Assembly (NCBI GenBank): GCA_973895155.1
Contig: OZ316893.1
Coordinates: 10,979,660 to 11,043,659, forward strand
Length of the DNA: 64,000 bases
Origin: Marsupella aquatica
Lineage: Eukaryota; Plantae; Marchantiophyta
Direction of reading: 5' to 3'
This document shows positions 8,401 to 30,832 of this stretch, in pieces. The notes under the pieces were generated by a model. It was not told where the DNA came from and did no database searches. It worked only from the letters and a program-made list of their open reading frames with translations. Position numbers and translations under genes: made by a program. The stretch's first letter is position 1, and each line of letters starts with the position of its first letter.

Positions 8401-10300
8401 CCTGCAATCGGTAGGATGTTGAGCTCGTTCTCTTTAACAAACCAATTGGAGACTTTGGTCAGGCCATACGAAGGTTCTTTGTTGTCATTGAAGGATTCCG
8501 TGAAGACTCCTTCCCACACCAAGAGCTTGAGAAGGCATGTAAGCCTTCTCGTCAACTCGGAGTTCGGTTGGCGTGACTTGACGACGGGCAAGTGAGCGAG
8601 GATCTCCTCTGCTGTTAAGGGCTTTCCTCCTTCCGCTTTGAAGAGAATGTCCGGGATTCCCAACTCGAGAACCGCCTTGAGCGACATGGAGACCGAGAAT
8701 TTCATGAGGATGTCGTGGGCCACGTATCCGCTGTCATCGCCTCGTGAAAGGGTGCCTCCATTGCTAATGCTGTCCATATTGGTGGTTAATTTAAAGCTGT
8801 TTGATCAATATTCTGGCCTGGAATGCCTAAGCGTGGCTAGAGGACAGATATGTGCACGGCAAACGTTAGTAGTTAGTCTCCTGATAATTAATCTACTGCG
8901 TCGGATAGAGTTCTACTATACGACCGTAACTCCAAGCCTTCACGTAACCAGGCTTGTTGAGAAGTGATCAGCCAAGTGACTTGGACAGGTCCAAATTAAT
9001 GTCCTCGGGAAGCATGCGTGGATTCAGCTAGACCTGGTGGACGGTGGTGGAATCGATTCAGCTCAGGAGCACAGGCTCAGAAAAAACTTACAAGTAACAT
9101 ACGTTTGGAGGACTGCATTCTGCTAGAGGAAAGTGAAATGATCAGCCGTGCCGAAATGGGTTCCGACCGAGAGTGTTCCCTTGCTAGTAGCTACCGTAGC
9201 TGGATATCGAACTCATGGATTGAAATTAAGAATAGCGAGCTTGAGAACGACGTGCAATCTAAGTGGGATACTTCCCTTTGTAGTCTCCATCCTAGTCAAT
9301 TCTCACACAGACTCTCAGATCGACTCTGAGAGGAATGGCCGGGAAGGAGTGGTCTGGTCTTCAGTCAAGTTCACACTGTCAGATTCCTGAATGGGAATAA
9401 TTACCTACTTTGGGGCATCCACCTTGCTTGTCCTGTAGCCTCGAGGGGTCATACTAGGGGATATTAACATGAGGGAGAGGACATAAACCATCCAATGGCA
9501 TCTATTTTGCTAATAATTAGCGCAACGAAAGCTGCATTAAAGGCCTACCCCCTAGAGTGAAGCTTAAGGACGGTATCTCCAAGTAAGGTCAGAGTGACAA
9601 TGATTCTAGCAAGCTTCTAGACAATAACTTCAATTAAGGACAAAACTGAAATGGGTGGACGAAATACAGAGATAGGAGCAAAGAGCAGTGTTTTTCTTAG
9701 TGGCACCTCCCCAAAAAATCTTTTGCCACTTTTGGCCAAAATTAGCTACTATGCTGTCTCATTAGCCACTGTTCCACCTAATCCCCCATTAGCCAGAATC
9801 GAACTGCCCGGGAAAATAATTGAATAGTGAATCTTTTGAGCATCTTCTCTTCACACACTTTACATTCGCCACTCTCGAGAAAAAAGTGAAATCCGTAAAA
9901 AATACGCTGGCAAAGAGGAACAATAGTGACATTGACTATAAATGTAGACAAAACTGAAATGGGGTGGGACAGCAGTCATAGATGAGGCAAAGGTATCATT
10001 GAATCCTTTCAATCCTTTGAAATTATTTTTTCTGTCTTCATATCTATATCTTTTGAGGAACGTGTAATCGGGCTTATATAGCATGATGCAAAGGCCTATA
10101 GTCTAGGGTGAAGCCTATAGTTTGTAAATCTCAATAAGGGACAAAATTAATACTGAGTACTAAAGGACAAAATTGAAAATGAGGAGGGCAAAAAATGAGG
10201 GGAGAGAAATTAAGGACGGGGATGCGCAAAGATGAATATAAAGTTTTCTTTGACAAAATTCTTTTTACTTTAATTCATCTTATTTTTTATGATCAAGGAA
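5435..10300. repeat. Left arm of a large inverted duplication (partner about 26420-32310) containing OMT copy 2 and its flanks
   Basis: 5460-5540 is the reverse complement of about 32210-32290; the OMT2 promoter (8780-9420) matches 27840-28465 reversed; more diverged similarity continues as 9420-10300 versus 26420-27560. Ends approximate. Confidence 0.8.
6698..8777 (-). CDS. COMT-like O-methyltransferase, copy 2; exons 8777-8402, 8211-7858, 7447-7383, 6997-6698 (364 aa, intact)
   Basis: Close paralogue of copy 1 with the same exon structure; exons join in frame (1095 nt); VVDVGGGTG, GGNMFESVP and SVLHNHDD motifs. Confidence 0.92.
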
Positions 10301-11009: not shown

Positions 11010-11284
11010 TATTAGAAAAGGTTTAATTGGTAGGCCACCGTCCAAAGTGGTAGGCCACCGTCCTTAGTTGTAGGCCACCGTCCTAAATTAGTGACTTAAA
11101 TTAGACCATGAGGTGAACTATGTTATAGGTACATGTGAGGGAATGTGTAGCATGAGAGAATACACAATATTCTCGTTTGACTTGACCAGGCATCCAAGGG
11201 ATGCCAGTCAATGTATAAAACCCCTCACTACTCAATGACAAACACACCGCATTTCCACATTCTTGGGCTCATGGATTTCTAACA
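11010..11284 (+). repeat. Copia 5' LTR (275 bp, TA...CA ends, three internal ~20-bp TAGGCCACCGTCC units)
   Basis: Direct repeat of 24028-24326; immediately followed by the PBS. Confidence 0.95.
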
Positions 11285-11297
11285 TGGTATCAGAGCC
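11285..11297 (+). promoter_or_regulatory. Primer-binding site complementary to initiator tRNA-Met
   Basis: TGGTATCAGAGCC directly after the LTR-terminal CA. Confidence 0.93.
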
Positions 11298-14200
11298 TTG
11301 TTGTGTTACTTCTGAATTGTGGGATTTCATATTTCTTATGAGGAGAGGAGAGTTGGTCTAGAGAGAGGATTCCCCCTCTAGAACTACTTGAATCAAATTT
11401 GAAGAAGTAAGAATTGGACTCAATTCCCTACCAATTGATGAGAAAAGTTTTTCAAGCAGGTACATCGGGCAGCAAGACAATTTTTTTTTTGTTGGGGGGG
11501 AGCAGTTGAGGCCAAATCTAAGCACGATTAGATGACATTTCAGAAGGAGCAGAGTTTGTCAAATTCACGTTTTGGGCGAGAGGACGCTTGATCTCAAATT
11601 TTGTTTTTGGCATTGTGAAGAATGTGACGACGCAGATGCAATAGAAAGCATTCCGAGTAGGTAATCTATGGTGAGCAATAATAGAAGTGTTCTATTGTGA
11701 ATGCAGTGCTTCTTGCAGTGGTCAAGAAGATTTTTTGTGGTGGCAAGAAGATTATTGGATAGTGATCCAATCAAAGGCGTTGGTGCTTTTCTTTTGAGCA
11801 GCGGCTCAATATGACGTCAAACATGAAGATCCCAAAGTTTGATGGCACATATTTCCAAGTGTGGACAAGAAAATTGATTTTGAGTTTCAAAGATGAGAAG
11901 CTGATGGGAATTGTTGATGGCACTAGCCCAAAGCCAACAACAACTCCAATGTACACCCCAACAAAATATGAATTGGAAGAGTGGGATCATAAAGACAACA
12001 AGGCACTTCGAATTCTGACACAAGGCATGGAGAATTCATAAGCACATCATATCAGTAGTGCCAAGACTGCTGCGGAAGCATGGTCAACACTTCTCAACAT
12101 GTTTGAAGCAAGTGATGCCATAACCAAGATGTATCTTCATGACAAGTTGGCCACTCTCAAGATGAAGCAAGGAGAAAGCGTCATAAAGCATGTACATGTT
12201 TTAAGAGGAATTTTGGAGCAACTTAATGCAGCGGGAGCACCAATGTCAAATGAGGATGCACGATTGGCACTCATGAGGAGCATGCCTCAAAGTTGGAGAG
12301 GGGCAATTATTCCTCTAAGGAGGGATACAACTCTTACTCTTCCGTCCTTGATTGCATATCTATTGCAAGAGGAAACGATGCAAAAAATGAAGGACTTGGC
12401 AGAGTTGACAACATCACTTTACATTGACTCAAGGCTAGGGTCGAAATCTACCATCTCACAAGGTAGTAATTTTGGGAAGGCTAGCACCTCCCAAAAACCA
12501 TGGAAGGAGAAAGCTTCCAAGATGAAATGTCACTTTTGTAAACGGAAAGGACATTTTATTCATGACTGCAGAGCAAGGATAGCCAAGGAGGGAAATGATG
12601 CCAAGAAGGTTCAAGCGAACTCAGTCATACATAAGTTGTATGTGGCATCAATTGGGAATTCCGATGAAGGAGATTCAAGTTGATATGTGGACACAACTGC
12701 AATCCAACATATGGTGCATCATCGAGAAAGCTTTGTGGAATACAAAGCTTGGGATCATGCCCATGTAGTGTATTTGGGAGATGATTCGACCTTGCAGATT
12801 GCTGGAGTGGGATGTGTTCCCATTAAATTCCATGATGGTTCAGTGAGGATAGTGGAACATGTGCTTCATGTACCTTGTCTCACAAAGAACCTATTTTCAG
12901 TGAACCAACTTGATGAAGAAGGAGGAGAGGCTATCATCAAAAAAGGTTCATGTACTTTGAAGAGTCTAAGTGGCTCTATCATTAGTACTTGCTTTACTGT
13001 TAACAAGTTATATAAACTTGGTGTAACTGTAAGCCTCCACACTGCAAATATTGCTATCACAACCGAGATCACAACAAGTGGGGCAATGTGGCATAAAAGG
13101 CTTGGCCACATCAATGAAGCTAGAATGCAACAACTGCAAGACCACAACATGGTGGAAGGCATTGGTAAATTTGATGGAGTTTCTTTGTCTAATTGCGGAG
13201 CCTGTGCAAAGGCAAAGTCTACAAAGTTGAAATATCCGAAGGGTGGAAGATCAAAGGCAACTGAACTTCTTGCCTTAGTTCATTCAGATATTTGTGGCCC
13301 AGTTCGCACTGCCACTCATTCAGGCTATGTCTACTTCATCACATTCATTGATGATTTCTCGAGATATTGTACCATATATCTCTTGAGGCACAAGTCAAAA
13401 GCCTTTGTGAAATTCAAAGAGTTTGAAGCTCTTGTAGAAACACAAACCGACAAAAAGGTTAAGGTGTTGCGGTCTGACAATGGAGGAGAGTACAAGTCAA
13501 CAACCTTTGACCTATTTTGCAAGGAATATGGGATTGCAAGGAAATTTACAGTTGCAGAGACTCCTCAACAAAATGGAGTAGCTAAGAGAAAGAATAGAAC
13601 ACTAGTGGAGGCAGTTCTATCCTTGTTGAATCATTCAGGTCTATCTCAATCCTATTGGGGGGAAGCTATTCATACAGCTAACTACCTTCAAAATCAAACA
13701 CCCACAAAAGCACTAGATGCCGACAAGACACCATATGAGCTTTGGTATGGGAGAAAACCAAACTTGTCACATCTCAGGGTTTTTGGATGTAGAGCACATC
13801 TTAACATCAACAAAAACCATCAAGGGAAGCTTGACAATCATGCCAAAGATTGTATTTTTGTGGGATATCCAGAAGACTCCACATCAAGAGATGTCTATAG
13901 GGTTCAACGAACAACCGATCGCAAGGTGATTGTGGCAAGAGATGTTCGATTTAAAGAAGACCAGCCCGGTGGAAAAGGCCCAGTTACTTCAGAGTTGGAT
14001 GATCCGGTGCTATTTGAACTTCCACTAGCACTAGCATCAACACCAACTCCAATGGGAGCACCAGTGCTAGCTCCGGCACCAGGTCCAGTGGGAGCACCAG
14101 CACTAGCACCAGTGGGAGCACCGGCTTTAGCTCAAGTGGGAGCTAATGCACCTGATGTTAGAGAAGAGGCTATTGAAATTTCAGGCACATCTACTTCAAG

Positions 14201-14455
14201 AGGACCACAACCAAGCAGTTCACTACCACGATCCAGGTCCACAGAATCATTTGCAACACATTTTGATGAATTTGAAGGTTCAATAGAAGATGATGCCTCT
14301 ACTCATGTTGAATTCTCAGAACCAGAATTTGGAAGGGGAAAGAGGAAAAAGATACCAACGAGGAGATATGGTTTTGACTCTGATTCAGCCATTGTGGCCT
14401 TAGTGACTGAATCTGGTCCAAGAATGGTGGAACCTACTTCTTTGAAGGAGGCACT

Positions 14456-14487
14456 AACAAGAAGCCTTAAATGATGAGTAACAAGCC
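14456..14487 (+). repeat. Left TIR AACAAGAAGCCTTAAATGATGAGTAACAAGCC
   Basis: Reverse complement of 22421-22452 with 5 mismatches; the first 15 bp are identical. Confidence 0.93.
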
Positions 14488-15015
14488 CATACTTTAGGAA
14501 CTCTAGCCAAAAAATCAGAAAAACAACGAAAAAGTCAAAAAAAGTGCAAAAATTAGCACCTATTTTAGAGCAAAAATATGGAGCGAACAAAATATGACAT
14601 AAACTAGCTATGTTTTGACACCTAAAAATGACCAAATTCATCTGAAGTTACATTCCACCAATAAATGATCTCAAATACAACACTATTATCTACAATGGTC
14701 TCATAATTACACGAGGTGTCTTTTGAAACAACAACTAAATCACCTCCAAAAGCCATTGTCATTTAAAAACCAGAAAATAAATTACTACAACTTAACCTGA
14801 TACACATTATTGTGAAAAGAAGACAAGGAGAATAGAAATGACACCATCTAATTGAATTGAAACACAACCCACTAAGATAATATTAAACTACAAATTTCTC
14901 AAGAAACTTTAACCATGAATTCATGAATAAGTGGTAAAGGCATTTTGAAAATTTGTAAATTTTCAAGTTATCCATGTTTTTCAATGGTAATGTCATAAAC
15001 AATAACTACTTTTCA

Positions 15016-18000
15016 TTACTCAGATCCAGAAGTTCTCAATTCTTGAAACGAAATATCCCTAGATTTATCTCCTAGCGGGGTTCTAGTTGATCCATTCTCT
15101 TGTTCTTGCTCTTTCTCTTCTGCCAAAAATTCAGTCAATCGGATTTTGATTCGATCTACTGTCTTTTTGTACAATGTATCAGATTTTGTCAACATGAAGT
15201 TGTAAGCAAAAACAGTAGTTGAAGATAAATCAAGCTCTTGGTGAAACCATATTGGTTTCAAAGTTCCTTTCCCACGACCACTTTTCTTCTTTTCGTAGTT
15301 TAAGACTTCTGGTAAGTACTTGGCTTTCCAAGGATCTGACCCGGTTTTTGGAGCATGCCATAAAACATAAATCATTTTTGGAATGTTGAACTCGTCACGC
15401 TGGTCAATTCTTTCCACCTTGGCCACCCAAAATGTTTCCGATTCTTCTCCAGCAACAGAAATATAAGTGTTGACTTCAAGATCCGAAAAGTCTCCTTCCA
15501 TATTCTCCTTCTCTGCATCTATCTTTCCTTGATTCCGATAAGGACCCACGTATATATCTCTGGTAGGTCCGTATACTCTCTCTTCAATTTCCTCTTCATT
15601 GACAAGGACTCTGGGAACTTCAGCAGCAACAGCAATCTCCCTTTGGGAGCGTGGCCATTGAAAAGGGAAAATCAATGGTCTTTGATCAAGGAGCAAAGAT
15701 TTATTCAATTCCCGTTGCTCTTCAAAAAACATTCTCCACCAGTTCACTTCCTCTTCTGAGAATAAAGTTTCAACTGCAAGTATTCCCTTTTGAATCTCAT
15801 TTAACGAATCATCCATCTCCTTCAAAGTCATTCTTGAAGAACTAGACATATTTGGTTGAGTCCTTGTAACGTTCTTATCCCCCTTTTTGAAAAGGGGTAA
15901 TCCGGGAGCACAACCCATCACCTTTTCTGGCTCCTCTTCCCTCAAAAATTTCACGCCTCCGTCAGGTTTCCAAGTTGAGTCCGTGGAAAACTTCTTCCCC
16001 CATTGGGTTGGAACTTGATTTTCCAACTTGTCAAATGCAAATTTGTACTGGTGGTGGAAGGTAACATTTCGAATCCTTTCAATGACTAAAGGTGGATCTG
16101 AGAAGGCATATTGACGGAAATCATATGTTTCCTTTAAAAGAGCGATATTTGGTTGGGGTTGATATGATTCACAAATAATATCACATAGGCTTTCGTATGT
16201 GAATGCCTTAAACCTTGCTAGTCGTTTAGAAAATCGACTGAACATTTGATCTATTTGGTCGTGTGTGTGTCCAACCAACAAGAATCCTAGTTTGATTTTC
16301 CGAAAAACCTTTCTTCGAATCAACATATGAAGATAGGCAAAGAGTAAATTATTTTTATTTTCTCTACTGGTATTATCAAGTTGAAGATAGAGAACAGGCG
16401 GCAAGCCACCAGGCTTTTCTTCCCATTCGTGAAACACCCTTTGCAGGATTGTGACTGTCAAGTTTCCATCATTATGCAATACAGGATAATTAAGAAACAC
16501 TCTTGAAAATAGTGCACCATTGAAAACCAGGCATCCGACAACGTGCATTTGGATCAAACATGTTTCGTCCACCGATTTTGGGGGCCGCGGCCAATGAGGC
16601 AACCTTGTCTTCTTCTGATCCATCCCATCAATGACAACTCCCAAATATTTATCAGAATTTGAAAAACATTTCTTACGATGCTTCGCGAGTTTCTCACGTT
16701 CTTTGGATTGTTGGTCTCTATGTTTTTGTAACATAATTTCCCCTCGCCCTGGAAAAACAACTTGTTAGTTTCTTCAAAAAAAATTAGAAATCATGTGTTA
16801 AGCCATATTCTTGAAACAAAAACTTGTCAAACTTGTAAGCAACTTACTCTTTTCGGTCTCCGAGACAGCTTTGTCCCAAATTGATTTGAACTCCTCGCAA
16901 TCCGCGCAAGCACTGAATCGATTGACTGGAGGAATCTTCACATGACCAAATTCTTGAACCCAAACTTTCAAGAATTGTCGATAGGATATTTTTGAAGATT
17001 CATCAATCTTCAAAATTTCAAAATTCTATTTAATCTATTTTCAAAATTCTATTTAATCTATGATTGCCAACGCAAAATATAAGCTTGAAAGCTTTCCGAC
17101 AAATACTCTTTTGACCAAACGTGTAAGATATAGTCTGCCTCCCTCCTTCATTTCCGTCTCGCTTTATAAGCCACTACAAAGATAAAGATCGATCTTGAGA
17201 TTTCTGCCTCAAAAATTTAGAACGGGCCTCACGAATTTCTTTTGGAGATAGACTTAGGAGACAATGACTCTGACAACAGTACTTACTATTTGTTTTCTTG
17301 ATATCCTCCTCTTTCAACTTTGTTTCACACAAAGTGGCGTTGCTCGTACGTTTGTAACGACTAGATGCCACCGGAACATCATCATCCTCCCCACTCTCCG
17401 AAGACTCGCTTTCATTCGATGATGAAATGGTCACCAACATTTGCTTCTGAACATGCCTAGATTCCAGACCTACAGCCTTCGGAGATGGAGGCTCTTCCTT
17501 CACTCTATGCACCCTTGGAATACCTGGGCGTATTTCAGAAATCCCTCCATTACCATGTAGGGACCCTTTCAATATTTTCCTAGGGTCCCTCTCCACCAGG
17601 TTGGTTTCCCTGTTTGAGTTTCCGTGACTTGATCCGCTCCCTGCCCCAACACCATGACTCCTAGGTAAAACTGAGGAACGCACATTAGAATTCTTTTCTG
17701 GAATACTTTTCAATAACACTGGTCATCTAGTTTCTTCCCTCATCCCCCTGTGAAATGTTTCCGACGTTGGCTTACCAAAGGTTTTACTTTTTGGCATTTG
17801 CTTCAGCCGCTGAACACTTTGCAGACTGCAAAAATCTCTGTCATTTTCCCCACTTAGTGCCTTCTTCGTCTTTCCAAATCCAGTCTTCATGAATTCATGA
17901 GACCGTTTCCCAGACATCCAAATAGGCATTGAACCTTCCAGATTACTCCCCAATTTGTCCTTTGTTGGTGACAAAGGAGATACAACTTGACGTCCAGGGG

Positions 18001-18250
18001 GGCCAATACTCTCCAAGGAGTCAGAGGAGCTCCCTGACCTCTCTTTACCACCGACCAATGATTTCTTCCCACTAATTGCAAGTCGTAAAGGACTACGTTT
18101 TAACTTGCTCATAGGGGTGGGGGGTGGCATATCTAAAACAGTAGTTATTCCAGGGATATCTGGGCCAACCACTGTGCAGGGGCCATCCGGCAATGAAACA
18201 TCATCAGAAACTCCATCTGAATAATCATCTGATTCGTAACACGCCGCCAT
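15016..18250 (-). pseudogene. Sola-like / DUF7869-type DDE transposase with disabled N-terminal half; intron 16847-16749
   Basis: Core motifs IDGMDQ, LYLQLDNTSRENKN and FLLVGHTHDQIDQMFS; upstream CCQSHC, ICRKAFKLIF and FSACADC motifs. In-frame stops at about 17723 (TGA) and 17174 (TAG); a 23-bp tandem duplication near 17015-17062 breaks the frame. The last exon (16748-15016) is open. Confidence 0.85.
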
Positions 18251-18794
18251 TGGAAAAACTAGTGCAAATTGACAAGAAACTCATAAAATCAGTAAAATCT
18301 AACAAATGTTCTCAAAATAATGACCAAGAGTCATGAATAAACGAGCCTATTTATAGTTTTTCACGGATTGTTGGGACTTTTTAACTTCAAAAATATCAAA
18401 TATTCATGAAATTTGCAAGCTTTTTCCCGTTAATACCCCGAAATATTCATGAATAATTGGCCCAAAAACATTGATTTATCATGATTCTGGGTTAATTTTA
18501 CTAAGTCGCGCCTGATCCGTGATTAGTATGTATAACCAAGGAACACGGGGCAACCCATTCATTTTCACTCAATGTCATTTGGATTTCCTTTGTAAAAGAG
18601 TGAAAAACAATCTCGCTATCCAATTTCGTGCCATTTTCAGCACTCATCGGCGACGTGTCGCGAGTTGTCGCGGTCGCACTTCATTTCGACCCTATTTTAG
18701 GTAGTAATTTAGGCCCTGGGTGATTTCTTCACGTCACCCCCCTCCGAACCCTATTTTAAATACCCTTCTGCATCACCGAGGTGTACAAGCAAAG

Positions 18795-18904
18795 AGAGAG
18801 GAGACTCCCTTCATGAATTCATGAAGGTCGGAGCGAGAGGGAGACTCCCTTCATGAATTCATGAAGGTCGGAGCGAGAGGGAGACTCCCTTCATGAATTC
18901 ATGA
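18795..18904. repeat. About 2.7 copies of a 40-bp tandem repeat carrying the palindrome CCTTCATGAATTCATGAAGG, in the divergent intergenic region
   Basis: GAGACTCCCTTCATGAATTCATGAAGGTCGGAGCGAGAGG at 18801 and 18841, with a partial copy at 18881. Confidence 0.95.
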
Positions 18905-19069
18905 TAGGAGTCCTGGGGTGGCCGAGAGCGTTGTTAGATCCGTAAGGACACGGTTTTAGTAGCCATTTGTTGGCACATTCCTTGGTTCTGTGGCACTTTG
19001 TCTCGCAGGTTGGGGTTGAAGTGGACTGATTTTGTGGTATGTTCTCAGGTTTGAAGATCAGGCAAAAAC

Positions 19070-22000
19070 ATGACAATGTCGCAGGAAGAGCTGGTGGATG
19101 ACATCTTTTCGCGCCATCCTTTGACGGACTTCCACAACTCATCCTGGACGATTTCCTTAGGGACGGAAACATGGAAGAAGCCCTTCCTAATGCTGTGTGT
19201 ATTTGAGGGGCTTCCATCGGGGGCATTAGGGTGGGTAAATTACGGCCGCATCGATGTATTTCGACGGGGCGACGAAGTTGTGAACATGTTGATCACAACG
19301 AAGGAAACATCAACTTTGATTGTCGTGGATGTGGAGAGGTTTTCTGGAACGGCTGCCACCTGCTATCTCGATGAGGACATCGATAGCATCATTGAGACTG
19401 TCAAGTCTCTTTCGAGTGAGGAACGTTACCACGACGTCGCGGGAAAGATTTCCGGTTTTGTGTTTGAATTTCACGCTAGCACTTTAAAGAGTGCAATCCG
19501 AAAATCAAGAGAGATTCTCCGGAAAAGGTCGGCAGAGAAGGGAGTATGTCGTCCACCCAAATGTGGGGCTTCCGGTGTTCCTTCTGGATCGAGGCCTAGC
19601 ATTTTACCCGATGATATTTTGACCGTGGTAGCGCCTACAACCTCCCGGGAAGCAGCAGCATCTGGAGGGGGATCTCAAGTTGGCAGATCATCCCAGGGAA
19701 CGGCTTTGACTGGTGGGTCGGCACAATGTACGACTGGAACTCGCATTTCTTCAAAGAAGCGACCTGCTATGACTCCTGAGCCTACCGAGCCCAGTGCTAC
19801 AAAGTCAAAAAAGAAGACTTTGGAGAAAATTCCAACGCATTTGGAGCAAAAGGCTCAATCAATGTCAATGGATGCACGGGTATTGTACCAGGAGGAGATT
19901 CTGGGAAGATGTGGTGTTCAAGAGGAGACCGTGACCGTTGACATTGGTCAACTTTACCCTCCAGTGAGAGAGAAGGCTGTGGGCTTGCCCATTTACCAGG
20001 TCCGACACATCCAACCATATTTCTTGACCCAATTGACCTTGCGGATGAAGACTGTAGGTGCCAGTCCACTTGCAGCTCCGTTTGTCCTCTTGGTGGATCC
20101 GAAGGAGTGTGCTACTAGGCAAGACTTTGATTTTTCAAGGAAAGCTGATTACCATTATTATGTGATTGGGGGCAACCATTCAGCCTGTGCCAAAGCAGAC
20201 CTTGCTCTTCAGTTCCCTAACAACAAGGCATTTCGGAGAGTGCAATCTTGGATATTTGCGGGATTGAGTGTGCAAGAGGCAAGAAACCTTGCGTGGAGTC
20301 ACAATATTGATTCTGAATTTCGACAACAGATGACGACAATCCAGAGAGTAAATTATATTCACATGAGATTTGTTGAGAATGGATTGTCGTCCAACCAGGA
20401 TTTCAAGAAAGAGTGTGCTACTGAAATCAATCTCAAGGATTGGGGTGTACGAAAGGATGCTGAGGTTCTTAATGCCAATGATAACCTATTTCAGTTGGCA
20501 TTCCGGCAAGATCCTGTGTGGTCATTTGTGAGGCAGATTTGTGACAAGTGGGAGATGTGTGAGATCAAAGGTCAAAAAGGAGACAAAGGCAAGAAGAAAG
20601 TCTCTAAGTCTGGAGATGCCAAATTGCCTTATGAGGACATGAAATTAACAGAGTGGAGACACATGCAGACCTTGAAAGATCCTGATATGATTTGCCCAGT
20701 GTTACAGAGAGTTCTTACTAAAGAACTCTCTTTACAGGAAATGGGTCACGAATTTACTCGACACAAATTTCAGATGCAGGTGCAGAAGGTCTTCCTCACG
20801 TGTCTACACGAGGAGAGTTGGTCAGGTTGTAAAACCAAGTACCCTGAGCATTGCACAGACAATGTGCTTAAGAATTTTGTACTTGTTTTCCAGACATGGG
20901 TAAGATTCTGTCACCTTTCTTCGAATGATTGTTTGAATTCATTTAATATTTGGAATCCTTGTTTCTAATTCTACAGTTCCTTTTTGTAGAAAGATACCAC
21001 CTCCCGGAAAAAGAAGGGAGATGAGGAAGGCAAAGATCTCAAGTCATTCCCGGACAAATTCAATGCGCATATTGTGCAAGCCCAAAATTGGCTATCCATG
21101 AAGACTTCTAGTCGGCAAACCCAAGAGGGGGAACTTCATCCAAATTCGTTTGAGCATCCAGAGTTTGGTGATGTGCACTATGATATTTTTACTCATGATG
21201 CTCAGCGATTACATGAGGTGGTTCCGGGTCGGGCTTACACATTAGCTTTAGTGGATATTCCCTACGGGTTTGCATTGCCTGGATGTCTTCATGAAGACAC
21301 TATTGGATGGGGAACTGAGGAGATCACAAAAATGGTCCAATCGTTCAAGGTGGCTACTACTGCAAAGTTGTGGCGTATTATCATTCACCACAGCCTTGAC
21401 CAATATGAGGCCATCAAGACCGTTTTGAAAGCGGAGTGTAATGGAGGGTTCCAGAATTGTGTGTGGTAAGAAATATTTGTTTTTGAAAAAAACAACTATT
21501 AGTTATTCATGATTTCATGAACCATGTTTCTCAGTTTAAATAACTCCTTGACTTTTTGTGACTTTTCAGGGTTAAGGATAATGTGAAGAATGCTGGTGGA
21601 CCAAGATTGAACAGCAACTTTGAGTGCTTTACAATTGGCTTTCACAGCCAGGATGGTAAACGGTCATTGGAGCACTTCAATTTTGACACAAATGAATCAA
21701 GGAACAATGTGGTTGTATGCGCAGCTGTGACTAAGAAGCTGAAACACAACGGGGATAACAAGGCAGTGAATGTTTATCAGAAACCACGTGCATTGTTAGA
21801 TTGGGAAGTGAGTCATTTTAGTCAGGTTGGAGACTGGGTTTTGGATATTTGTTCAGGATCAGGGACTGGGACAACCTCCTCCTTGGCCATGGGGAGACAT
21901 TGCGTTGCCATTGAGATTGACGAGCGACAGAGCAGTGTGTTGAAAGGGAGGATTCTTAACCTTGCAGATAACATTGAAGAGGAAGACGGACAGGGGGAGA

Positions 22001-22131
22001 TGGATGAGGAGAGTGAGGAAGACATTCCTCAGGCCGGAGAGGATAGCGTGGTTGACGATGCCACAATTGTTCCAGAATTGACGACAGGGACTTCCAGAAC
22101 CGAGGAAGGGGAAGCGGTCCCTTTGGATTAG
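19070..22131 (+). CDS. Transposon-borne ParB/Srx-like domain fused to a beta-class amino-DNA-methyltransferase (N6_N4_Mtase-like); exons 19070-20899, 20990-21465, 21570-22131 (955 aa, intact)
   Basis: ParB-like segment VDIGQLYPP..YQVRHI..PFVLLVD..YYVIGGNHSACAK..LSVQEARNLAWSHN. MTase motif IV-like LALVDIPYG, then CVWVK, NFECFTIG and YQKPRALLDWEVSHFSQVGDWVLDICSGSGTGTTSSLAMGRHCVAIEID (motifs X-I-II). Two GT-AG introns splice in frame (2868 nt); acidic C-terminal tail. Confidence 0.88.
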
Positions 22132-22420
22132 ACTAGATAAATAGAGGGACTCGTAGCATTTGAAACCACTTGGGCTTAAGTTGGGTTATATTTTGTAAAA
22201 CTTTGAGTTTGACTTAAACTCTGATCGATGAGTTTGATTTTGATTACTTTTATAAAGTGCATATTTCAAGGTTTATACAATTGTGAGAATATCATATAAG
22301 ATATGCTTAGATTTTGGTGGTAAAATTCTCTTGAGTCTAGTTTGGAAAATACATACCATTTTTTGGTGGTTTTTTGGTATACACTTTTTAATATCATGAA
22401 GATTTTGAAAAGAGAAATAA

Positions 22421-22452
22421 GGCTTTGGACTCATCCCTTAAGGCTTCTTGTT
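22421..22452 (-). repeat. Right TIR (reverse complement AACAAGAAGCCTTAAGGGATGAGTCCAAAGCC)
   Basis: Pairs with the left TIR; followed by TSD CACT. Confidence 0.93.
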
Positions 22453-24017
22453 CACTTACAAGATCAGATGCAGAGCAATGGAGGAAAGCCATTAATGATG
22501 AGTTAGACTCATTGAAGAAAAACAACACATGGACCATAGTCAAGCTTCCTCAAAATCGAAAGGCGGTGGGCTGCAAGTGGGTTTTCAAGTTGAAGTTAGT
22601 ACAACCCGGATGGAAGCATTGCAAGATACAAAGCTAGACTTGTAGCCAAAGGCTATTCTCAAGTCTATGGGGTTGATTACTTGGATACTTTTTCACCAGT
22701 AGTGAAAATCACATCTATAAGGCTCATTCTATCCTTGGTGGCCTTTTATGACCTTGAGGCCATCCTTTTAGATGTGAAGACAACATTCCTGAATGGTATA
22801 CTCACAGAACCAATCTACATGGAGTTGCCTGAAGGATTAGAGTGGTTGGAGAAAATTCTTGACCCTGAAATGGTATGTCTCCTATTGAGGGCATTATATG
22901 GCCTCAAGCAATCCTCTAGGTTATGGTATAAGAGGATTGACACTTTCTTGTTAAGCATTGGCTTTAGAAAGTGCATAGCTGACTCAAATGTGTATTATTA
23001 TGAGTCAGGAGGAAACTTTGTGATATTAGCTCTATATGTTGATGATTGCATACTTGCAAGCAATGACACCAACATATTAGCTGAAGTCAAAACGACACTC
23101 TTGAAGGAATTCGAGATGAGTGACTTAGGCAATATACATAATTGCCTTGGTATGGAAATCTCCCGCAACAGAGAAGAGGGTTGGCTCAAGATGTCTCAAG
23201 AGAGATACATCTTGGACAAATTAAGCACTTTCAACATGAAGAATTGCAAGGCAGTGCATACTCAAGTTGAGTTGGGCTTAAAGCTAAGCAAGGAGGATAG
23301 CCCACAAACTGAAGATGAAAAGTTACAGATGGAGACTGTACCATACCAGAATGCAGTTGGAAGCCTCATGTGGGCTATGATCTGCACAAGGCCCGACTTA
23401 TCCTATGCAGTTGGATCAGTGGCACAATTCATGTCCAATCCAGGTCCAAAGCATTGGATGGCTGTGAAGCAAATTTTTTGGTACTTGAAGGGCACATCAA
23501 GTATGGGTTTGGTGTATAAAAGATCAGAATCTTTTATTCCCTTACATGGATATACTGATGCTGATTGGGGAGGAGATATTGACACAAGAAGATCAACCTC
23601 TGGTTATTGTTTCATGCTCTCAGGTGCAGTAGTGAGTTGGGCAAGCAAAAAGCAAAAATCTGTAGCCTTGTCTAGCACCGAAGCAGAGTACATGGCCTTA
23701 TCAAAGGCATGCACTGAGATAGTATGGTTGAAAAGACTTCTTGGAGACTTGCATCATTAGCAAGCAAGAGCCGTCATTCATTGTGATAATCAAAGTGCTC
23801 TTAGCTTACTTGAAGCGTCTTGGCTTCATGATAGGAGCAAGCACATTGATATTCAATATCACTTTAGTAGGGAACTAGTTGATAGTGGTGAAATAGAAGT
23901 AATCTATTGTCCCACCGAGGAAATGGCAGCGGACATTCTCACCAAAGGACTTCCAAAAGACAAACACATTTATTTGAGAAAAATGCTAGGGCTTTATTAG
24001 GGTTCTAATTAGTCACT

Positions 24018-24027
24018 AAAGTGGGAG
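24018..24027 (+). promoter_or_regulatory. Polypurine tract of the copia element
   Basis: AAAGTGGGAG immediately before the 3' LTR. Confidence 0.85.
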
Positions 24028-24326
24028 TATTAGAAAAGGTTTAATTGGTAGCTAGGCCACCGTCCTTAGTTGTAGGCCACTGTCCTAAGTGGTAGGCCAC
24101 CATCCTTAGTTGTGGGCCACCGTCCTAAATTAGTGACTTAAATTAGACCATGAGGTGAACTATGTTATAGGTACATGTGAGGGAATGTGTAGCATGAGAG
24201 AATACACAATATTCTTGTTTGACTTGACCAGGTATCCAAGGGATGCCAGTCCATGTATAAAACCCCTCACTATTCAATGACAAACACACCGCATTTCCAC
24301 ATTCTTGGGCTCATGGATTTCTAACA
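24028..24326 (+). repeat. Copia 3' LTR (299 bp, four ~20-bp internal units)
   Basis: Direct repeat of the 5' LTR with one extra internal unit; followed by TSD CTTTC. Confidence 0.95.
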
Positions 24327-24331
24327 CTTTC

Positions 24332-25860
24332 TCCAGCTCCATCGACCCAGATTTGAACAGTGCAAGAGTCATCAAGTGATACGTAGGAATGGCTCACACT
24401 ACGTGCTCCAGCATGATCACTCTACCTGCCGAAGTAAGACTCCTATTAGTCCATGTATTTAATCCCTGAGTTCCGAATTCTTGCGAGTAGGAAGGTTTCT
24501 TTGTGAGTTGGACTCAGTTTATAGCCGATGGGACACCCGAGTACTCGCAGGCCTCTCCAATTTTTGCAGTCTTGCAACCTGTATTAGAAAGCCATTAGGG
24601 TATGGACTATCCCTAAAGCAAATTGGGATGATCTGCGATTTGTGAACGTTGAGCCGTGCCCCGGAGATGTTTTCAAAGCGTTGTATCACGTCCCGAGCAG
24701 CAGTGAACTCCTCCTCAGTCGCCTCGAGTAAAAGGCCGGTGTCATCTGCAAATAGCTGGTGGCAAAGCTGCTTCCGTTGGCGAGTCTCAGACCCTGAATA
24801 ACCGGGTGAATAATGTTGCTTTGTAACAATCTCATATGTAATCATTGACATGAGGGGCCCGGGTACGCAACTCTTATACAATAGACAGGGGTCTACATTT
24901 TTATATGGACTAAAAAGTTGGCTATACAAAATAATTAAAATTTGAAAAAACCTGGGTTTTTCACTTTTAAAAATTTTCAAGTCATATAAAAGGTTTGGTT
25001 TTCTTCTTTTTCCATATGAAATTAAAAAATATTATTCATGTTTTAATTTTTATTAAAAGATTTTAAAAATTTTAATAAAAATCCTAAAAAGCTGGCTAGT
25101 TTGGCTGTAGACCCCTGTATTAAAAAAAACCCATATAATTTGGTTTTGATCAATTATTTGTACATCAAAACATGCTTAGTTTTTTTTTAAAGTTACATTT
25201 TTGGATTCCTTGAGTTGAGAGGTACAAGACTTTAGTACACTAAAATGAAATCTAAGATGGTCAATTGAATATAAGGCCATTATAAGGAATTAAAAACTTG
25301 CCTTATAAAAAGGGGAGTTGCATACCCGGGATGAGGGGTTGCAAAGTGAGAGTGAAGAGAATGCTTGACAGCGGACATCCTTGCCTGACTCCCCTGCCAA
25401 GGTTGATAGGTTCAGTGAGTTTTCCGTTAGTGTGGATCTTAGATTGGGCACCTGTGACCAGACCCTTGAAAAGTATGATGGTCTTCTCTCCAAAATCCAT
25501 AGCACGCATAACGGCCCAGATAAACTCATGCGAAACTCTGTCGTAGGCTTTCATCAAGTCAAGCTTTAAGAAAAAAAATTGTTTCTTGCTGATAGGGCAA
25601 TCTCTCTCACCAGGCGAAAGGTGAGCAGATTGTTGAGAATATCTGTACCCTTCAAGAACTAAGCCCGTTTGTTGAGGATCACCAATTCGGTTGGCGATAG
25701 TCTTGATCCAATTTGCGAGTAATTTAGCGATAGTTTTCTCCGTTAGCGTCAGCATCATCAGTGGCCTCCAGTTGATTAGTTCCATGCTTTTGTGATTTTT
25801 GGGGATGAGTTTTAGGACCCCTGCAACTACCTTGACTATGATGATTCAGTCTCCCCAAAA
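24332..25860 (-). mobile_element. LINE reverse-transcriptase remnant, interrupted by the MITE at 24858-25330
   Basis: NWRPL, FLKLDLMKAYDRVSH, RGVRQGCPLSSILF, LFADDT and SGARLNVHKS motifs; frameshifted. Confidence 0.9.
24858..25330. mobile_element. AT-rich MITE (473 bp), TIR CCCGGGTA(C/T)GCAACTC, 8-bp TSD ATGAGGGG
   Basis: TSD at 24850-24857 and 25331-25338; a second copy lies at 29625-30100. Confidence 0.93.
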
Positions 25861-28465
25861 AGCCTAGAAGGCAACTGCAGAGGCTAGTTAATCCACCTCG
25901 ACCTAAACAACCCTGAGGAGACAACAATACTGTTTACCTGGGCCTCCACTCTCCAATTGTGCAGATCTGTTTCTCCAACCAGATCTACACAATTGGCATA
26001 CAGACAGGTCAAAAGAACTCAGTTCATACATCTGTATCGAATGAAGAAACGTTGCAGTAAAGTCATATCAGCCGAATATCAAAAGAGTTATACTGGGGTC
26101 ATTCTCTACGTGAAAAATACAGATTCAAATAAACGGATAAATGAAGATGAAGTTACATCAAAAAAAGTCCAGAGCTTGCCCAAACAAAGTATGTCACCCC
26201 TCACAGAGCTCGGGGCGCAAACAAAGTATGCTGCGTCTCACAGATCAAGCTCGCCCAAACAAAAAAGGATGCTGCGCCTCACAAATTTAGCTCGAAGCAA
26301 ACAGAGTGTGCCAAGCCTCACAGACCTAGCCCAACCATTGATGATTGGCGTATTGTACTCGAGCCTCAATCACACCATTCCCATCAAGTACCAAGCCATA
26401 CTAAGCCTTCCTTGATCATAAATAGAGATGAAGATAAAGAGAATTTCGCAGAAAAAACATTCTATCCTACTTATTTCCTTTTCATCTTTGCCCCATATAT
26501 CCCCCTATTTTATTTGTCTCCCCTCATTTTTGCCCTCCTCATTTTTAATTGTCCTTTATTAGTCACTGTCATTTTTGCCCCTTATTGAGGGTTATAGGGT
26601 AGAGGCTTCACCCTAGATGCTAGCTCTACAAAGTAGTTTTGCCTCATGTGTTATTAGCCCAATTACAGGTTACTTGAAAGTAAATAGATGTGAAGACAAA
26701 GTAAAACCTTGCAAACTAAAGGATTCTATGCTATCTTTGCCTCATCTCTGTTTTTTGTCCATCCTCATTTCAGTTTTGTTTACATTAGCCTGATTACTCG
26801 TTAAAAAACGGAAATAGAGATGAAGACCCACAAAAATATTGCAAAACAAGATACTCTTGTTCATGTTTGCCTCCATCCCTTTTTTGTTCATGTTTGCTTC
26901 CATCCCTTTTTTTTCACCATATATCAGTGTTATTTTGTCTTTACTGAGAGTCGCTATTAGTTTTGTCCTTATTTAGAGTCAATGTAATCTTCGCTCCCAT
27001 CCCTTTTATTTTGTCCATCTTCATTTTTCAGTTTTGTTCTTACTATTGAGAGTTACTCTCTAGAGTCTTCACTTCTAGATAGTAGCCCTTGAAAGCACCT
27101 TTGGCATTGCGTTTCATTAGTAAGATGTAGATTCAATGCTACTTTTGTTCCTGTTTGCTATTATCTTTGCTTTTTGTCCATCCATTTCCCTTTTTCCTTT
27201 ATTTAGAATCATTGTCACTTTTGTCCCATCTCTGCTTTTGTCTATCTCTGTCGTTTGTCCACCCATTCCAGTTTTTCCTTTATTTAGAGTCATTGACACT
27301 TTTGTCCAGAAGCTTCCCAGAATCATATATTGTCACTTTGACCTTGCTTGGAGTTACCCTCCATAGGCTTCACTCTAGACAGTAGCCTTTACAGTAGCTT
27401 TCTTTTGGCTAATTCTTCGATAGAAAGATGTTTTATGTTCTCTCCCCCGGTCTCTCCCTCATGGTAAGCTCCCAAAGTCTGACCCCTCGTGGCCTCATGG
27501 TAAGCTCCCCAAAGTCTGACCCCCTCGTGGCTACACGACACAGGTAGGTGGATGCCAGCATATTTTTTTTAAGGTTTTTTAATTTTTAGCTACTGGACTT
27601 GCCAGGCACGTAAACTGGGCATTCAGGAGCTCTAAGAGAGTAGATCTAGTAATATTTTTTTGTCAGTTTTTCCTGGATTATAATTGACCATCAGATATCC
27701 CTAGAGTAATTTCAGGATGACGGTTAGATTCTGGCAAATAGGATACATGACTAGGTGGAATGTTAGCCAAAAGTGGCGAACACTTTTTGGAGAGGTGGTG
27801 TAATTTGGCTAAAATTTGCACTTAAGAAATAAGTTGGTGGATGCCCCAAAGTAGGTGCTTCTTCCCATTCAAGAATCTGCGTGTGTGACCTTGACTGACG
27901 ACCACACCACTCCTTCCCGGCCAGTCCTCTCAGAGTCGATCTGGGAGTCTGTGTGAAAGCTGACAAGGATGGAGACTACACAGGGAAATATCACACTTAG
28001 ATTGCACATCGTTCACAAGATCGCTACTCTTAATTTCACTCCATCAGTTTGATACTAGATACTGTAGCTACTCGCAAGGGAACAATCTCGGTTGGGACCC
28101 ATTTCAGCACGGCTGATCACGTTCATTTTACTCTAGCAGAATGCAGGCCTTCAAACGTTCGTTGGATGTAAGTTTTTTCTGAACCACTGCTCCTGAGCTG
28201 AATCGATTCCACCGCCCTCCAGCAGCTCCAGCTCAATCCACGCATGCTTCCGAGTACATTAATTTGGGCCTGTCCAAATCACTCGGCTGATCACTTCTCA
28301 ACAAGCCTGGCTACGCGAAGGCTTGGAGTTACTGTAGTATACTACAACTGTTTCGGATCCAGGAGACAAATTTCTAACGTTTGCCGTGTTTATATTTGTC
28401 CTCTAGCCACGTGAGCCTTCCAGGCCCGAAAATTGATTAAAACAGCTTCAACACCATAATCAACG

Positions 28466-30832
28466 ATGGACGACATTAGCAATGCAGGCCCTGTTTCACA
28501 AGGGGATGACAGCGGATACGTGGCCCACGACATCCTCGTGAAATTCTCGGTCTCCATGTCGCTCAAAGCGGTTCTCGAGCTGGGAATCCCGGACATTCTG
28601 TTCAAAGCGGAAGGAGGAAAGACCTTAACAGCAGAGGAGATCCTCGCTCACCTGCCCGTCGTCAAGTCACGCCAACCGAACTCCGAGTTGACGAGAAGGC
28701 TTACATGCCTTCTCAAGCTCTTGGTGTGGGAAGAAGTCTTCACGGAATCGTTCAATGACAACAAAGAACCTTCGTATGGCCTGACCAAAGTCTCCAATTG
28801 GTTTGTTAAAGAGAACGGGCTCAACATTTTACCTTTTGCAGGTGATTATTTTATCATTACTAATCTTCAGGTTATCGGTGGGGAACTTGATCTCAATAGT
28901 CTGGATGAGTTGGCTTTTGATACGATCTCTGGCCGGTCATCTGAAACTAAGAGTTGTCAGTACTTCCAAAGTTTGGAAACTACTTCATAGTGTGAACCAA
29001 CAGTAATAGCAATTTACATCTGAGATGCCTGCAGATATGGTTTTTTGTGAAGAGGTCACGGGTGGTTTCGGTCGCATAAGGAATTCCATTCTAGACGATG
29101 CATGCTGTCAACCCACTTGAAGAAAATCTTGGAATGCCTGTGTACGAGTATGCTGCTAAACATTCGGAGTTCGGCAGACTATTTCAAAATGCAATGGGCG
29201 CGTTCGCCAACATGCAGTACGGTTTCATCGAGTTTGTGCAGCACTCCGGTGTGCTTGAAGGTGTGGAGACTGTGGTGGACGTAGGAGGAGGGACGGGAAG
29301 GCATGTTGCTAACATTATCGCCAGGAACCCTCAGATGAAAGGAATCAACTTCGACCTCCCATCCGTCATTGCCCAAGCTCCTGAAGTAAAAGGTCAGTTA
29401 CTGTTATTTACCATGGCTCCCAGTTGTAGCAAGATTTTGCTCACGCTCGTTCTTCACTCTCTGAAGGCTTTCTCGATCTTCGCCATCAATCGCAGCCACC
29501 TCACTCGCGTTATATTACGAGTACTGAACGGCCTGAAAGGAATATCCAGAAGTCAACTGTCATCACTAATCGTATTTGACAGCCTTTAGTGGAGCATTTC
29601 TGGCATCTTACGTTTGCTTCCTCGCCCGGGTATGCAACTCCCCTTTTTTATAAGGCAAGTTTTTAATTCCTTATAATAGCCATATATCCAATTGACCATC
29701 TTAGATTTTATTTTAGTCTTCTAAAATCTTGTACCTCTCAACTTAAGGAATCCAAAAATGTAACTTAAAAAGAAAACCAAACATGTTTTGATGTACTAAA
29801 AATTGATCAAAACCAAATTATATGGGTTTTTTTTAATACAGGGGTCTACAACCAAACTAGCCACCTTTTCAGGATTTTTATTAAAATTTTAAAAATATTT
29901 TAATAAAAATTCCAGCATGTGTAGGAATATTTTTTAATTTCATATGGAAAAGGAAGAAAACCAACCCTTTTACATGACTTGAAAATTTTAAAAAGTGGAA
30001 AACCCAGGTTTTTTGAAATTTTATTATTTTGTATAGCCAACTTGTTAGTCCATATAAAAATGTAGACCCCTGCCGATTATACAAGAGTTGCGTACCCGGG
30101 CTTCCTCGCAAACTTAACGCATTCTGAATCTCGACTTCACAAAGCGAGTCTTGTTTATACCTATCGAGTGTGTTGGAGAAATTCCCAACGAAAACCCAAG
30201 TTTCTCATTATCTACTAGAAAGTAATTTCCATTCTTCAAGGCATAATTAGGCAGATTCTTTGCTTGTGAGTCAAGAGTGTTTTTGCTTGTGAGTCCAGAG
30301 GTGGGTTTGTTTCTTGCCACGTTCAGGTATAACAAGCATAGCAGGCAACATATTCGAGTCTGTGCCATCTGGAGACGCAATGTTCGTTAAGGTAGGTACT
30401 ACGCATGCCATCTTCCCCTCGGCCAATGGTGGCATACCAACTTTTCACTGCAGGTGTAATTAAGTTGGGATACAATTTACTTCAGTCGGTGGGGTTCACA
30501 ATGCTGATGAATTGTACGTCGGGATGTTGCAGAGTGTTCTACACAACCATGATGACAAAGATGCCATTGTGATTCTGAAGAACTGTTTCAAAGCTCTCCC
30601 CAAACAAGGCAAGGCCATAATCGTCGAGTATGTGTTGGGTGACAAGAACGATAGAAGCCCGAAAGCCAAAATGACGATGTGCTTTCAATTTCATATGCTG
30701 GTGTTCATGAAGGGAGCCCGGGAGAGAACTAAGCCCGAGTACGAGAAGATCATCGCTGCAGCAGGATTCTCACGCTCTGAGTTTATTAGAAGTGCAAGAT
30801 CCCAGGATTTGATCATAGCATTCAAGGAATGA
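28466..30832 (+). pseudogene. COMT-like O-methyltransferase copy 3, frameshifted in exon 2
   Basis: Near-identical to copy 2, but ATGC is duplicated at 29098-29105 (GATGCATGCTGTC versus GATGCTGTC in copy 1), giving TGA at 29118-29120. MITE in intron 2; intron 3 shortened. Confidence 0.88.
29625..30100. mobile_element. MITE (476 bp), same family as 24858-25330 in opposite orientation, 8-bp TSD CTTCCTCG
   Basis: TSD at 29617-29624 and 30101-30108; the empty site is visible in the paralogous introns of copies 1 and 2 (GCTTCCTCGCAAACTTAACGCA). Confidence 0.95.

Follow-up and report, generated by a model that had tools for sequence, protein, structure and literature searches.

The 64,000-nucleotide window analysed here, from the liverwort Marsupella aquatica (contig OZ316893.1 of assembly GCA_973895155.1, 10,979,660 to 11,043,659 of the forward strand), contains an 8-kb Sola1-type DNA transposon at positions 14456–22452. 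Opposite its transposase gene, the element carries an open cargo gene predicted to encode a ParB-like protein fused to a bacterial-type amino-methyltransferase (MTase). This architecture is already known from algal Sola-1. What is new is a member from a land-plant clade and a candidate target site, the palindrome TCATG-N4-CATGA, which recurs within the element and is a candidate parS-like self site. The family is small (8 kb), young and multi-copy. Since it combines an open cargo gene with a conserved candidate site, the published hypothesis that such elements modify themselves becomes directly testable.

The palindrome TCATG-N4-CATGA

The exact palindrome occurs five times in the 8-kb element (at 17887, 18811, 18851, 18891 and 21507), whereas 500 shuffled sequences gave a mean of 0.016. 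Since three of these sites belong to the units of a single tandem repeat, the number of independent exact positions is three. Only one exact copy lies in the other 56 kb of the window. An unbiased count of spaced 5-mer palindromes ranked this motif first in the element and in two related loci, L001 and L002, and did not do so in a third, short locus, L003. These loci hold four, three and one copies, respectively. In L001 and L002 alike, the cargo gene has two copies upstream of it, and in L001 the 5′ region of the transposase gene contains one exact copy and a near one. The conserved palindrome, with its five exact copies, had been overlooked in an earlier reading made from the sequence alone (hereafter the sequence-only reading). 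The copy outside the element (62736–62749) sits in an AT-rich stretch with degenerate TCATGA/TTATGA repeats at 62170–62750 and shares no other similarity with the element.

The site in intron 2 of the cargo gene is especially well conserved. All ten arm columns (10/10) are invariant in 4/4 elements, as compared to 12/53 background columns (p 5e-6, post hoc), and this conservation persists although synonymous sites are near saturation among the four elements. Intron 1 lacks the palindrome in 4/4 elements. The centre of the palindrome varies symmetrically (AATT, ATAT, CTAG), and an asymmetric centre, ATTT, is also seen. The symmetric changes fit a site for a two-fold protein better than an RNA hairpin. 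ParB-type proteins read parS dyads of 14–16 bp, and a ParB/KorB-like domain, such as that predicted for the cargo protein, is a natural reader of a dyad of this size.

Could the palindrome instead be a site for the transposase or for a host transcription factor, with the ParB-MTase targeting another sequence, or none specifically? We consider this rather unlikely. A near copy is subterminal (14913), single TCATGA half-sites are found at 18331–18479 and 22394, and the exact copy at 62736 lies outside the element. Moreover, the AtMu1 transposase is said, in the available part of a preprint, to activate cognate copies sequence-specifically (10.64898/2026.08.24.746577). However, the exact sites all lie in the interior of the element, at >900 bp from its ends, and the site in the cargo intron is kept in 4/4 elements.

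The cargo gene and its predicted protein

The cargo gene consists of three exons with GT-AG introns and is divergent from the transposase gene. Its 955-aa frame is open, as the sequence-only reading had stated, with splicing being predicted. Only one intron pair was open among 18 start/splice combinations tried. Both intron positions are kept in 3/3 related loci (L001, L002 and L003), and the same exon-1 junction is reached by 11/12 exon-1 homologs.

A ParB/Srx domain had been expected, and structural comparison supplied it where domain libraries did not: exon 1 has no ParB match in Pfam, NCBIfam or PHROG, and hence the assignment rests on structure. The exon-1 model (mean predicted local distance difference test score, pLDDT, of 82) is laid out as an N-terminal domain (aa ~1–160), a disordered linker, a ParB/Srx-like domain (~279–419) and a helical domain (~420–571). 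Each of the top 10 Foldseek matches is a Noc or a ParB (E 4e-5 to 8e-4). VIA-align gave Z 9.2 against PadC (root-mean-square deviation, rmsd, 3.1; 97 aligned), Z 7.5 against KorB (rmsd 14.1; 190 aligned) and Z 4.3 against SopB. Weaker matches to the KorB and SopB DNA-binding domains cover aa 420–571, and the helical domain alone gives Z 4.3–5.2. Exon 1 is predicted from these models to encode a ParB/Noc-like N-domain followed by a KorB/SopB-like helical domain. One homolog of the helical region, P0069, is fused to an N-terminal SAM domain.

The first 160 aa of the cargo protein (window 19070–19550) form a conserved, confidently modelled domain with weak PH-fold matches to TFIIH p62, Rtt106 and Spt16, the best having Z 4.6, rmsd 3.9 and 102 aligned. 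The ESM Atlas gave no usable match for the N-terminal 165 aa. This domain is possibly a chromatin or protein-interaction module, the PH-like matches being too weak to name a function.

The MTase motifs run in the order claimed by the sequence-only reading, with motif IV (DIPY) in exon 2 and motifs X-I (QKP...DICSGSG) in exon 3, which is the beta-class order. Exon 3 matches PF01555 (E 1.6e-8), and it matches the CcrM model at E 2.5e-10 with a score far under the curated cut-off. Because intron 2 splits the MTase of the window copy, an intron-less homolog, P0046 (20–33% identity to the window protein per exon), was folded; the Rossmann/beta-class fold is thus taken from this homolog model rather than from the window's own spliced domain. 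The best solved matches to the P0046 model are CcrM (E 5e-11), M.BceJIV and M1.HpyAVI, then N4CMT, RsrI, MboIIA and PvuII. Together, the motifs and the homolog model predict that the C-terminal part of the cargo protein is a CcrM-like, beta-class amino-MTase.

Compared with the canonical motif IV, (D/S/N)PP(Y/F/W), DIPY keeps the Asp, the second Pro and the Tyr, and the first Pro is replaced. The family profile aligns DiPy to DPPY of M.MboIIA and CcrM, with the stretch alone scoring under threshold. DPPY marks N6-adenine enzymes, and SPPY marks most N4-cytosine enzymes, according to the available part of PMC8885841. The Asp therefore points to N6-methyladenine (6mA), though it is not diagnostic, and we consider 6mA the probable product rather than N4-methylcytosine (4mC).

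It is conceivable that the protein binds the palindrome with an MTase that is dead or acts on RNA, and is a plain DNA-binding autoregulator or an organiser of the element. The available text of PMC4738411 judges the MTase domains of DIRS1 likely inactive and describes many eukaryotic N6-adenine MTases as having shifted to RNA. Moreover, motif IV is not only non-canonical but varies in relatives (DLPY, DFPY, DAPY, DIPH), and one animal homolog, P0158, has no motif IV. Nonetheless, 4/4 close elements retain DIPYG, and motif I, which has single changes in L001 and L003, is intact in L002 and in the window. In DPPY, the first proline works via its main chain, so Ile in its place need not inactivate the enzyme. 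In addition, pairwise comparison of the MTase exons with those of L001–L003 gave low non-synonymous divergence (pN 0.17–0.29) against high synonymous divergence (pS 0.69–0.80) in 6/6 exon pairs, which indicates that the MTase is under purifying selection. An inactive or RNA-acting enzyme therefore seems unlikely to us.

A possible self-modification system and its precedents

How might the palindrome and the cargo protein act together? We propose that the ParB-like domain binds the dyads as a dimer and brings the MTase to copies of the family, where the MTase writes 6mA near the shared intergenic region. We give this proposal about an even chance of being right. The ParB/KorB-like helical domain would recognise the dyad as ParB recognises parS, and, once tethered at dyads, the MTase would act on gene bodies and on the intergenic region that the copies share. 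The foreign mark could keep the element transcribable or mobilisable against host 5-methylcytosine (5mC), and it would act in trans on every copy with a site, like VANC for VANDAL. A more far-reaching version, in which land-plant Sola1 elements have combined a miniature ParB/parS system with a 6mA writer for hundreds of millions of years, shielding themselves from 5mC, is one that we hold only tentatively. In favour of the proposal, the observed/expected ratio for CpG is 0.86–0.92 in the intergenic region and the first 780 bp of the cargo gene, as against 0.15–0.27 in the flanking copia retrotransposon.

Several observations weigh against self-modification through the palindrome. For the element as a whole, the CpG ratio (0.62) is close to the background of the window (0.65), and CpG is depleted in the part that encodes ParB (0.38). 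The element was compared with Logan contigs from four of seven listed runs (X1, X2, X3 and X5, with X4, X6 and X7 left out). Of 29 listed differences, 25 have X1 support, and 14 of these 25 are C>T or G>A; nine of the 14 fall in CG or CHG (27% expected, p 0.004). This 5mC-type mutation bias suggests that the window copy is not protected. In its cargo gene, 6/7 changes from the majority are non-synonymous, none of them in the MTase core; although its frame is open, this copy is probably drifting. The GxxR arginine of ParB, which serves CTP/nucleotide binding, is missing from the cargo protein: the window copy has GGNHS, and Arg follows His in 0/60 motif hits in 161 homolog proteins. CTP-clamp sliding is therefore doubtful. 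The palindrome itself is known from four elements of one close clade only, and all of its sites could lie in transcripts. A peptide imprint of the palindrome was found in none of two sets of 161 and 120 homolog proteins, although this is a weak, uninformative test. To these points must be added the non-canonical and variable motif IV.

Methylation at the palindrome may alternatively limit or time transposition, as a self-restraint switch, rather than counter silencing. Dam, acting on IS10, is a precedent, and both the clustering of sites between the divergent genes and the 5mC-type mutation bias of the window copy are consistent with such a role. Nonetheless, given the lack of a palindrome in the terminal inverted repeats (TIRs) and the high retention of intergenic CpG, we regard self-restraint as very unlikely.

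The closest known counterpart is Sola1-1_Ec32 of the brown alga Ectocarpus, which has a gene for a 1104-aa ParB-like protein with an N4C/N6A MTase opposite the transposase gene, and for which the authors propose self-binding and self-modification by such proteins (PMC12477816). The supplement of that paper lists AACCG-CGGTT termini, a 4-bp target-site duplication (TSD) and Sola1-1_PPa as best transposase match. Hence, the claim in the sequence-only reading that this cargo was undescribed in Sola elements is refuted. Both elements have a 4-bp TSD, AAC/GTT ends (AACAAG-CTTGTT here) and a ParB-MTase gene opposite the transposase gene. They differ in size: Sola1-1_Ec32 is 21.5 kb, with a 282-bp imperfect TIR, whereas the liverwort element is 8.0 kb, with a 32-bp TIR and a 955-aa cargo protein. 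Their hosts are a brown alga and a land plant, and their likeness is judged from the available descriptions rather than from sequence. No brown-algal name appears among 30 looked-up exon-1 matches or 16 further ones.

A second algal precedent is provided by the accessory genes PAG2 and PAG3 of red-algal Plavaka elements, DNA transposons with a PF01555 MTase and a ParB-like protein, in which tandem inverted repeats beside the ParB gene have been proposed as binding sites (10.1101/2025.02.11.637652). As described in the available part of that preprint, these are EnSpm/Plavaka rather than Sola elements, and the ParB domain and the MTase are encoded by separate genes, as fusions with a 2-oxoglutarate oxygenase and with SET, respectively. 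In Arabidopsis, VANC motifs sit in introns, intergenic regions and tandem repeats of VANDAL elements (PMC5735166). The liverwort element is likewise an accessory-gene transposon with short motifs in an intergenic tandem repeat and an intron. In contrast, VANC belongs to Mutator-like elements, recognises 8–9-bp non-palindromic motifs and causes a loss of 5mC that, in the available account, is experimentally shown; here, a writer is predicted and the motif forms a dyad.

With phage and prophage ParB-MTase fusions, CcrM, M.BceJIV and M.MboIIA, the cargo protein has the domain order (ParB, then beta-class MTase), the fold and the motif order in common, but unlike the phage fusions it is encoded by a spliced eukaryotic gene and has an extra N-terminal domain. 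Marchantia DN4MT1 and bdelloid N4CMT are likewise eukaryotic beta-class amino-MTases. However, they are encoded by host genes, have (T)SPPY and write 4mC, and the available descriptions report no ParB, whereas the cargo gene is transposon-borne and has DIPY and ParB. A link to DN4MT1, which the sequence-only reading named as a known case of co-option, is unsupported, DN4MT1 having TSPPY and, in the source as available, no extra domains.

A literature search found no land-plant description of such a gene; Iyer et al. 2011, Bao et al. 2009 and Repbase, which may cover moss or other plants, lay outside that search. There is no ParB or Sola passage in PMC6431247, PMC12344493 or 10.1101/2024.10.28.620566. 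The palindrome is new relative to published ParB-MTase cargo, in that the available part of PMC12477816 names no target motif. If our proposal is correct, accessory proteins of this class would have an identified target in TCATG-N4-CATGA, and self-regulation of transposons by sequence-specific proteins would have a second route beside VANC, one that writes a bacterial mark instead of removing 5mC. The element would also provide a naturally targeted DNA methyl-writer and a concrete place in which to seek genuine 6mA or 4mC in plants, and in the genomes of bryophytes, ferns and gymnosperms such elements would act as local sources of true 6mA.

The transposon, its family and the surrounding window

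The boundaries of the element are defined by its TIRs, its TSD and an empty site. The TIR pair (32 nt, 84% complementary) is the longest inverted pair within 13–24 kb. Removal of the element restores the pol frame of a copia retrotransposon, the flanks joining in frame, and Logan contigs of runs X1 and X3 contain the empty site (joint 14451>22453, with 4 letters that fit either side); X1 and X3 belong to one study, and X1 may be the window's own source. The whole 8 kb therefore moved as a unit, as the sequence-only reading had concluded. That reading was right about the boundaries and the two genes, and it overlooked that the transposase of this copy is broken. The features of the element are listed in Table 1.

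Table 1. Coordinates of the transposon and its parts (positions in the window)
Feature	Position	Strand	Comment
Left TSD copy CACT (4 bp)	14452..14455	+	within copia pol frame
Left TIR	14456..14487	+	AACAAG...; 84% complementary to right TIR; other flanks at left end in X1, X3
Palindrome, one mismatch, same centre	14913..14926	.	just 3′ of transposase stop
Transposase exon 2, DUF7869 catalytic part	15016..16748	-	open frame; PF25273 E 4.1e-51
Predicted transposase intron, GT-AG, 99 nt	16749..16847	-	based on the sequence and on collinear homologs
Transposase exon 1, broken in window copy	16848..18250	-	two stops and 23-bp duplication
Exact palindrome TCATG-AATT-CATGA	17887..17900	.	low-complexity 5′ part of transposase gene
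40-bp tandem repeat, 2.8 copies	18794..18904	.	palindrome per unit (18811, 18851, 18891); between divergent genes
Cargo exon 1	19070..20899	+	N-terminal domain, linker, ParB/Srx-like and KorB/SopB-like helical domains (predicted)
Cargo exon 2	20990..21465	+	MTase domain start, motif IV DIPY
Cargo intron 2	21466..21569	+	carries palindrome at 21507-21520
Cargo exon 3	21570..22131	+	MTase motifs X-I (QKP...DICSGSG), acidic tail
Right TIR	22421..22452	-	...CTTGTT; other flanks at right end in X1
Right TSD copy CACT (4 bp)	22453..22456	+	flanks right TIR

In 4 of 12 listed loose ends (37 in total), the ends of the element are joined to other flanks, which shows that the family has multiple copies. 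Over ~8 kb, 25 listed sites and one replaced segment distinguish the element from the X1 majority, whereas the long terminal repeats of the host copia are 96.9% identical over 255 bp. These values indicate a young insertion in an older copia retrotransposon. That retrotransposon extends over about 11030–24330, is strongly CpG-depleted (0.15–0.27) and has a frameshift near 22600.

The transposase gene is on the minus strand, starting at 18250. The expectation of a Sola/DUF7869 transposase was confirmed by its match to PF25273 and by an acidic triad, D43/D124/D166 (alignment numbering), that is invariant in 20/20 aligned DUF7869 proteins. Sola1 transposases have a conserved acidic triad of the DDD type. 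Exon 1 of the window copy is broken at three places. At the in-frame stop 17723–17725, the window copy departs from the majority base in each of X1, X2 and X3. A frame-breaking 23-bp duplication at 17011–17033 replaces 187 letters found in an X1 contig, which correspond to a ~70-residue segment in transposase homologs. A second in-frame stop, at 17174–17176, lies within coding sequence collinear with homologs; since no majority difference is listed there, it may be shared by most copies. An intron at this stop is ruled out by the collinear alignment of homologs across it.

The target preference AWWT has been called a hallmark of Sola1 (PMC3845634), and it is not seen here: the TSD is CACT, and the flanking 4-mers at loose ends include TGCT, CCAG and TTGT. 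As Sola1-1_Ec32 is likewise not listed as AWWT in the available part of PMC12477816, this preference is not obligatory. The Sola1 label rests on the 4-bp TSD, the AAC...GTT termini, the acidic triad and the likeness to Sola1-1_Ec32. A CACTA element was also considered and rejected: the left junction reads CACTA only by chance, through the TSD; TAGTG is missing from the right end; and the transposase belongs to the DUF7869 type.

Is the cargo a family trait? Logan contigs cover the whole element, with depth in 30/30 bins in X1, X2 and X3 and in 28/30 bins in X5, contig depth not being equivalent to copy number. Near-identical contigs thus cover both genes in several runs, and in L001 a divergent transposase start lies beside the cargo gene. 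Homologs of the two genes have adjacent locus tags in the liverwort Riccia sorocarpa (R1sor_010795/010796) and the fern Adiantum nelumboides (L7F22_049838/049839), in each species on contigs of equal length, and a brown-algal element with this layout has been published. By these gene neighbourhoods, the transposase/cargo pair is a trait of the family, in agreement with the sequence-only reading. That this element alone captured a host gene, as a single event, is excluded by the contigs, the linkage in L001 and the adjacency in Riccia and Adiantum.

Searching with a profile of exon 1 gave 434 representatives with E values of up to 0.001. Among named homologs, that of the liverwort Calypogeia fissa is the closest (62%), and named sources among 30 looked-up matches are Chara, Riccia, Adiantum, Ginkgo, Ptychodera, Saccoglossus and Exaiptasia. 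Those of Chara and the animals are known as proteins; a transposon setting is seen in the layouts of Riccia, Adiantum and L001. In a tree of the ParB domain (57 rows), the window sequence groups with Calypogeia and others (99/93); the tree has no prokaryotic outgroup and carries long-branch warnings, and no donor is inferred from it. A metagenome scan with one protein yielded 0/36 candidates, and an alignment-based locus scan yielded 3/28. Exact-pattern scans, which have low reach, found no close relative in viral (0/6, 0/91) or prokaryotic (0/20) contigs.

Some relatives deserve separate mention. Runs X1, X2 and X3 contain a diverged second subfamily, matching window 20827–22408 in low-depth contigs, with an insertion at 21176–21228 and a shorter right end. 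P0003, a homolog of cargo exon 1, and P0163, a transposase homolog, both come from 8829-bp Logan contigs and possibly belong to one near-complete relative. In Chara braunii, an annotated protein (P0016) has two tandem ParB-MTase units, and there are many more Chara copies.

Three other features lie elsewhere in the window. Pieces of plant O-methyltransferase genes (PF00891, PF08100) lie at 2226–2714, 8280–8804 and 28460–29589, representing at least two copies around the copia element; they have no relationship to the DNA MTase. Fragments of a reverse transcriptase (PF00078) resembling that of long interspersed nuclear elements are on the minus strand at 24519–25845. Lastly, an open reading frame at 57522–58607 encodes a SWIM zinc finger (E 9e-5), after which the sequence is of low complexity.

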